A stretch of 16,761 bases of DNA from Escherichia coli (GTDB lineage Bacteria; Pseudomonadota; Gammaproteobacteria; Enterobacterales; Enterobacteriaceae): NCBI RefSeq assembly GCF_003334255.1, contig NZ_QOWU01000077.1, one strand, 5' to 3'. The position numbers were made by a program, and so were the translations under genes. The notes beneath the pieces are model-generated. The model was not told the DNA's origin. It ran no database searches and worked only from the letters and a program-made list of their open reading frames with translations. Positions 12,200-12,434 of this stretch are shown here, one piece after another; position 1 is the stretch's first letter; every line of letters starts with the position of its first letter.

Positions 12200-12434
12200 T
12201 ACAGGAAAAGCCAAAGCTGAATCGATTTTATGATTTGGTTCAATTCTTCCTTTAGCGGCATAATGTTTAATGACGTACGAAACGTCAGCGGTCAACACCC
12301 GCCAGCAATGGACTGTATTGCGCTCTTCGTGCGTCGCGTCTGTTAAAAACTGGCGCTAACAATACAGGCTAAAGTCGAACCGCCAGGCTAGACTTTAGTT
12401 CCACAACACTAAACCTATAAGTTGGGGAAATACA
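12200..12434 (+). promoter_or_regulatory. ptsHI-crr promoter/operator region (approximate extent)
   Basis: 383-bp intergenic region upstream of ptsH containing palindromes: GCTGAATCGATTT (12216..12228, Cra/FruR-like half-site symmetry) and TGACGTACGAAACGTCA (12271..12287, perfect 6-bp arms). The pts operon is known to be driven by multiple promoters controlled by CRP, Mlc and Cra; exact site assignment cannot be confirmed from sequence alone. Confidence 0.5.

Follow-up and report, generated by a model that had tools for sequence, protein, structure and literature searches.

The spacer between cysK and ptsH in Escherichia coli is probably the classical P0/P1 control region of the ptsHI-crr operon, in which one of two palindromic elements (element 1) is a Cra (FruR) operator and the other (element 2) is the start region of promoter P1. 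The original prediction had proposed both palindromes as candidate operators for CRP, Mlc or Cra. This interpretation was half right and is partly supported: it holds for element 1, which matches the Cra consensus exactly and is near-invariant, but not for element 2, which fails the scans for CRP, Mlc/NagC and Cra. Taken as a whole, the region represents known biology plus a palindrome placed on a transcription start, and nothing here alters the existing picture of pts regulation. A reader of the sequence alone can recover the Cra box; as a predictor of operators, a palindrome near a promoter is poor, since it overlooked the likely sites for Mlc and CRP, and the palindrome that stands out most is a transcription start region.

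The general components of the sugar phosphotransferase system (PTS) are encoded by ptsHI-crr, whose control region is a textbook case of regulation by CRP, Mlc and Cra. In the literature, ptsHI is described as repressed by Cra and Mlc, with CRP sites present.

Architecture and conservation of the cysK-ptsH spacer

The window, that is, the whole stretch of 16,761 nt that was analyzed, contains in E. coli the gene order zipA-cysZ-cysK-ptsH-ptsI-crr-pdxK. The cysK-ptsH spacer is 383 nt long, with the cysK stop codon at 12051 and the ptsH ATG at 12435; every one of the 5426 complete E. coli genomes carries it, and 5418 of the 5429 matching records showed an identity of at least 99%. For comparisons among species, an alignment was made of the 420 nt that precede the ATG in the ptsH locus of 80 other Enterobacterales species and of E. 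coli, giving a set of 81. Conservation along the spacer was not gradual, and occurred in sharp blocks (Table 1).

Table 1. Features and conserved blocks of the cysK-ptsH spacer. Positions are those of the window; conserved blocks are from the alignment of 81 Enterobacterales species.
Feature	Position	Strand	Details
Conserved block: cysK terminator	12074-12101		alignment
cysK intrinsic terminator hairpin	12074-12101	+	12-bp perfect arms, highly conserved; upstream limit of the regulatory region
Conserved block: TGTGG...TCAAA	12101-12116		alignment; variable spacer
CRP-like site I, TGTGG-CCTGCT-TCAAA	12101-12116	.	center 12108.5; -61.5 from the predicted P0 start near 12170
Conserved block: TGGTATTTAACC	12155-12166		alignment
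P0 extended -10 element, TGgTATTTA (putative)	12155-12163	+	predicted start near 12170
Conserved block	12173-12197		alignment; 25 nt
Mlc/NagC-type operator, ATTATTTTGATGCGCGAAATTAA (putative)	12173-12195	.	strongest candidate for the P0 site of Mlc; outside the two palindromes originally proposed
Conserved block: GCTGAATCGATTT then TATGATTTGGTTCAA	12216-12245		alignment
Cra (FruR) operator (putative)	12216-12231	+	invariant core GCTGAATCGATTT at 12216-12228; left half-site and center match the consensus perfectly
CRP-like site II, TATGA-TTTGGT-TCAAT	12229-12244	.	center 12236.5
Conserved block: GGCATAATG	12257-12265		alignment
P1 -10 hexamer, CATAAT	12259-12264	+	within block GGCATAATG (12257-12265)
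Palindrome TGACGT-ACGAA-ACGTCA (element 2)	12271-12287	+	P1 transcript would form the 5'-terminal stem-loop GACGU/ACGUC
Mapped primary start of ptsH P1, G	12272	+	5' UTR of 163 nt
Conserved block: final part of the ptsH 5' UTR	12352-12434		alignment; 83 nt

The terminator scanner called the hairpin at the upstream limit of the region terminator-like on the minus strand only; we assigned it to cysK, on the plus strand, because of the T run that follows the stem. Over 12074-12116 there is an A-tract upstream of the stem and a T-tract downstream, so that the terminator looks bidirectional. It is conserved as strongly as the operators, and its T-tract leads without a break into the first half-site (TGTGG) of CRP-like site I. 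An Rfam scan of 12040-12480 (E ≤ 10) returned terminator-like noise only, with no family over either palindrome or over the stem-loop of the 5' UTR.

The positions of both palindromes were right: element 1 (GCTGAATCGATTT) lies at 12216-12228 and element 2 (TGACGTACGAAACGTCA) at 12271-12287, both of them between cysK and ptsH. An inverted-repeat search confirmed the perfect 6-nt arms of element 2 (TGACGT/ACGTCA), separated by 5 nt. The dyad symmetry attributed to element 1 applies to its 8-bp core AATCGATT (12220-12227), which is a true palindrome, but not to the whole 13-mer. Dinucleotide shuffles of the 383-nt spacer contained a mean of 1.5 perfect 6-bp inverted repeats (with a spacer of 0-10 nt) and of 1.8 perfect 8-bp palindromes, versus one of the latter observed. 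We therefore rejected symmetry as evidence of function, because a shuffled spacer yields 1.5-1.8 such elements, and the significance of the palindromes must rest on other evidence. Element 1 is raised above chance by its consensus match and its conservation, and element 2 is only partly conserved.

A simple sigma-70 consensus scan of the region gave no promoter; for this reason, the promoter elements in Table 1 derive from conservation and from a published start. The Mendoza-Vargas start-site supplement contained nothing useful for ptsH.

Element 1 and the candidate regulator sites around it

Matrix and consensus scans for CRP, Mlc/NagC and Cra were Cra-positive for element 1, and for element 2 they remained below threshold with all three regulators. 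The degenerate Cra consensus that we used, RSTGAAWCSNTHHW (14-mer), reportedly from Ramseier's work, has a sole match without mismatches on both strands of the 16.7-kb window, and this match is element 1, at 12216. Compared to the Cra 16-mer gcTGAAtCGaTTCAgc (PMC5888115), the site GCTGAATCGATTTTAT coincides in 12 of 16 positions; the first 12 are perfect and the last four differ, the right half-site being degenerate, with TTAT where the consensus has CAGC.

The 13-mer of element 1 is exact in 70 of the 81 species, including members of Hafnia, Serratia, Yersinia, Rahnella and Erwinia, and each of its positions has an identity of at least 90% in the Enterobacterales alignment; for element 2, a 5-bp dyad is kept in only 27 species. 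Of the 70 species having both the core of the box, CTGAATCGA, and the P1 -10 core GCATAAT, 69 keep the two at a spacing of 41 nt. Relative to the mapped P1 start, the operator is centered at -48.5, and it overlaps CRP-like site II by 3 bp. Additionally, ptsHI is among the Cra-repressed genes in the secondary literature. Element 1 has every sequence-level attribute of a Cra operator.

Element 1 presumably corresponds to the 'FruR box' of pts P1, on which Ramseier et al. (1993) reported footprints and Ryu et al. (1995) further work; in these studies, purified Cra reportedly protects the box, with fructose-1-phosphate relieving the protection, and the box is also said to overlap partly a CRP site at P1. 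It appears to be an already-described Cra site, with a geometry that would agree with the published footprints. Within 12216-12231, a Cra dimer would bind GCTGAA, the strong half-site on the left, and TCGA in the center. As the 3' end of the box overlaps CRP-like site II, Cra and CRP would compete or interfere at P1, and this competition would in turn set the level of firing of P1 and its start point.

The Cra box is absent upstream of ptsH in loci L037, L042, L047, L068 and L074, from Dickeya, Pectobacterium and Symbiopectobacterium, and in that from Sodalis (L078). The -10 core GCATAAT is also missing from those Dickeya, Pectobacterium and Symbiopectobacterium loci and is kept in Sodalis, and a conserved hairpin in the 5' UTR is retained in all these soft-rot and symbiont loci. 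Judging from this distribution, P1 together with its control by Cra may have been added later or be confined to certain lineages.

Two CRP-like sites are found outside the palindromes. Site I has 2 mismatches to the CRP core, tied for the best in the window, and shows conserved half-sites around a variable spacer, with TGTG-N7-TCAAA present in 73 of the 81 species. Against TGTGA-N6-TCACA, site II shows 3 mismatches, as good a match as only 0.23% of window positions offer, and its motif occurs in 41-43 of the 81 species, mainly Enterobacteriaceae. Matches of this kind, with 2-3 core mismatches, are weak and, across the window, no more frequent than in shuffles; according to the literature, site II would be a functional CRP site. 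The CRP ChIP-exo supplement gave nothing useful for ptsH.

The extended -10 element of P0 is conserved in 59 of the 81 species, and in 55 species it maintains a fixed spacing of 54 nt to CRP-like site I. P0 is a glucose-induced promoter and, from this conserved element and the geometry of the sites, it would start near 12170, which would place the Mlc-type box at +4 to +26. In the literature on this operon, which includes Kim 1999 and Plumbridge 1999, Mlc reportedly binds from about +1 to +25 of P0. No P0 start is among the ptsH starts in PMC3415461, obtained in M9 glucose at mid-log.

The Mlc-type box was detected using a 23-bp NagC/Mlc-type matrix built from 10 sites tabulated in PMC3098098, with which the training sites score 17-26 bits. 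The best score in the window, 15.9 bits, corresponded to 12173-12195, and the same publication gives ATTATTTTGATGCGCGAAATTAA as a match for ptsH at 2531523 (FITBAR). The box has TT/AA at ±5,6 and A/T at ±11, the latter being a mark of Mlc-type versus NagC operators (PMC4288165), and conservation is at or near 9/9 at almost all positions of 12173-12197. Elements 1 and 2 were rejected as Mlc/NagC operators because of their negative scores with this matrix, at best -6.4 bits and -4.7 bits, respectively. The putative Mlc operator and the putative CRP site of P0 (CRP-like site I) both lie upstream of the two palindromes.

Element 2 and the start of P1

Element 2 is the P1 start site plus the initially transcribed region, and CRP, Mlc and Cra do not have an operator there. 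Supplementary file 2 of PMC3415461 places a ptsH start at position 2531623 of NC_000913, with upstream sequences ending in ...GCATAATGTTTAATG / ...GGCATAATGTTTAATG; these data are from mid-log cells in M9 glucose, whose RNA had been enriched for primary transcripts by terminator exonuclease (TEX). Applying a genome-to-window offset of 2519351, the start corresponds to 12272, which is the second base of element 2 and lies 8 nt downstream of CATAAT; element 2 therefore spans -1 to +16 of P1. Of the 81 species, 73 carry the -10 core GCATAAT, and conservation there is 9/9.

Over 12271-12287 there is no CRP site with 3 or fewer core mismatches, and the best overlapping one has 5 (7.4% of window positions). 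As a Cra operator, element 2 has mismatches in 9 of 16 positions to the 16-mer and in 4 of 14 to the degenerate pattern, and was likewise rejected. With scores below threshold for the three regulators and the operators mapping elsewhere, the operator role originally proposed for element 2 has to be abandoned.

It is very improbable that element 2 is instead the operator of a further dimeric transcription factor recognizing TGACG-N7-CGTCA, which would block or modulate P1 at its start. Its conserved arms flanking a more variable center have the look of a classic dyad operator, and its location over +1 is a typical repressor position; however, it does not match the regulators reported for the operon. 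Manual comparisons led us to discard MetJ, with only 7-8 of 16 positions shared with the consensus AGACGTCTAAACGTCT and boxes out of register, as well as a LacI-family box (RbsR, PurR), of which only the half-site CGAAACG bears a resemblance. A full-text literature search on the exact sequences retrieved only mentions of consensus sequences and the FITBAR Mlc-type match, and nothing for TGACGTACGAAACGTCA. Additionally, in the locus from Enterobacter sp. kpr-6 (L045) the symmetry is preserved although neither arm resembles that of E. coli in sequence, which argues against a further factor, and E. albertii changed both arms; these changes fit base pairing better than binding by a protein of fixed specificity.

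With transcription starting at G12272, a small hairpin would stand at the 5' end of the P1 RNA: pairing in GACGU/ACGUC opens with G12272 itself, so that the stem starts at nucleotide 1. This structure folds in E. coli with an energy of -5.6 to -5.7 kcal/mol (z-score, -2.6). We consider, tentatively and with some doubt, that element 2 might be a selected RNA structure, whose hairpin would shield the ptsH mRNA from 5'-end-dependent decay when terminal and would be internal on P0 transcripts; transcripts from a second start, P1b, inside the loop would lack it, so that the choice of start would alter the fate of the mRNA. Besides the position of the stem at nucleotide 1 and its stability in E. coli, this reading draws on the relatives: among 40 distinct Enterobacteriaceae sequences, the median fold was -3.8 kcal/mol, versus -0.8 kcal/mol for shuffled sequences, and 30 of the 40 folded at -2 kcal/mol or better. 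Both arms changed complementarily in E. albertii (TGATG/CATCA; C:G to U:A) and in L045 (GGCGA/TCGCC), 76% of the arm cells are paired, versus 9-55% in slid registers, and several arm changes are G.U wobbles compatible with an RNA from the plus strand. The covariation score was reached by only 2 of 500 shuffles, although this control is permissive for related sequences lacking structure, and kinship alone can beat it. Moreover, the five cells changed on both sides come from about two lineages, thus amounting to about two independent compensatory events, and the evidence for covariation of the arms is modest. The stem is also short, its sixth pair occurring in only 6 of the 40 distinct sequences, and has no match to an Rfam family. 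The dyad has been lost in several genera, having decayed in Kluyvera, Pseudocitrobacter, Buttiauxella, Cedecea and all the non-Enterobacteriaceae, in spite of the P1 -10 and Cra boxes being kept there.

It is quite possible, on the other hand, that element 2 serves no function in its own right and is a chance inverted repeat in the start-site and initially transcribed region, partially conserved due to promoter constraints (overlapping -10 elements and the context of the start site) and to short divergence times. By chance alone, the spacer should contain one or two inverted repeats of 6 bp, and conservation over 12271-12287, with 50-80% identity to E. coli and only 10-20% at 12277-12278 in its center, is clearly below that of the neighboring Cra, CRP and -10 blocks. 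The conserved dyad, restricted as it is to 27 of the 81 species, is one of 5 bp, TGACG-N7-CGTCA, with the 6-bp form in 5 of the 81; where the left arm decayed, the right part, CGAAACGTCA, was kept as sequence, as in Kluyvera (TGATA...CGTCA). The complementary changes of both arms in two lineages, and a pairing well above that in slid registers, speak against a chance repeat.

Ryu and Garges, in 1994, are said to have described repression by CRP-cAMP of an upstream start, P1a, and activation of a downstream start, P1b. The center of CRP-like site II is at -35.5 from 12272, from where it would hinder RNA polymerase, and at -41.5 from a start at 12278, which would be the classical activating position. 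This geometry fits the reported P1a/P1b switch, and the start at 12272 in glucose-grown cells agrees with it; from these distances we infer a second P1 start (P1b) near 12278. We take G12272 to be the P1a start, whose repression by CRP and restoration by Cra are reported in the literature. A further and improbable extension is that the start-site palindrome couples promoter choice to mRNA fate: transcripts from G12272 would carry the hairpin, those from P1b, with a predicted start in the loop, could not, and the Cra/CRP switch would toggle a stabilizing 5' structure on the ptsHI-crr mRNA. A recent publication (PMC9995076; Science Advances 2023) claims direct binding of ampicillin to a 17-bp DNA 'around P1b' of the pts promoter, in competition with CRP. 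Our preferred reading of element 2 remains that of the P1 start region, with +1 at G12272 and an inverted repeat through which the P1 transcript would acquire a short stem-loop at its 5' end.

The ptsH leader and comparison with known systems

Among the unannotated features nearby, the end of the ptsH 5' UTR stands out most: its ~83 nt (12352-12434) are almost invariant across 80 Enterobacterales species. RNAalifold predicted here a stem pairing 12367-12376 with 12391-12400, both arms of which are replaced in Pluralibacter gergoviae (L007) with pairing kept, and a second helix between CCACAAC (12401-12407) and the Shine-Dalgarno stretch GUUGGGG (12421-12427). Two more TEX-resistant 5' ends of ptsH were reported in PMC3415461, at 2531717 (36 reads; 12366) and at 2531756 (57 reads; 12405). 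The first is located at the foot of the conserved hairpin and the second inside the arm pairing with the Shine-Dalgarno stretch; they may represent extra promoters or protected processing products. In Enterobacter- and Lelliottia-type loci (L003, L009, L011, L014, L020, L039 and L053), ~65 nt of the leader, equivalent to 12289-12352, are absent and the start-site palindrome abuts GCGCTAAC, a conserved block in the 5' UTR. The middle of the leader, where conservation is poor, is therefore dispensable. The conserved hairpin of the 5' UTR deserves a look.

A 5'-terminal stem-loop of the type found in the ompA 5' UTR reportedly stabilizes enterobacterial mRNAs (Emory, Bouvet and Belasco, 1992). 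The putative P1 hairpin likewise starts at nucleotide 1, without an unpaired 5' tail; however, with 4-5 bp and -3.8 to -5.7 kcal/mol, its stem falls far short of those examples in length and strength and is present in only part of the Enterobacteriaceae, and the likeness is positional only.

As in CRP sites of class I (-61.5) and class II (-41.5), both CRP-like sites of the spacer show conserved half-sites and a classical spacing to the predicted starts. Neither of them coincides with the palindromes, site II only overlapping the 3' edge of element 1. Similarly, the box at 12173-12195 shares TT/AA at ±5,6 and A/T at ±11 with the 23-bp operators of the ROK-family regulators Mlc and NagC (ptsG, manX, nagE), but it sits 21 bp upstream of element 1, and these features do not extend to either palindrome, both of which score negative.

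The closest correspondence is that of element 1 with the operators of the Cra regulon, such as those of fruB, ppsA and pykF and the FruR box of pts P1, with which it shares the same consensus match and a Cra-repressed gene downstream. A strong left half-site combined with a weak right one is typical of Cra operators; element 1 has this same arrangement, and no difference distinguishes it from them.
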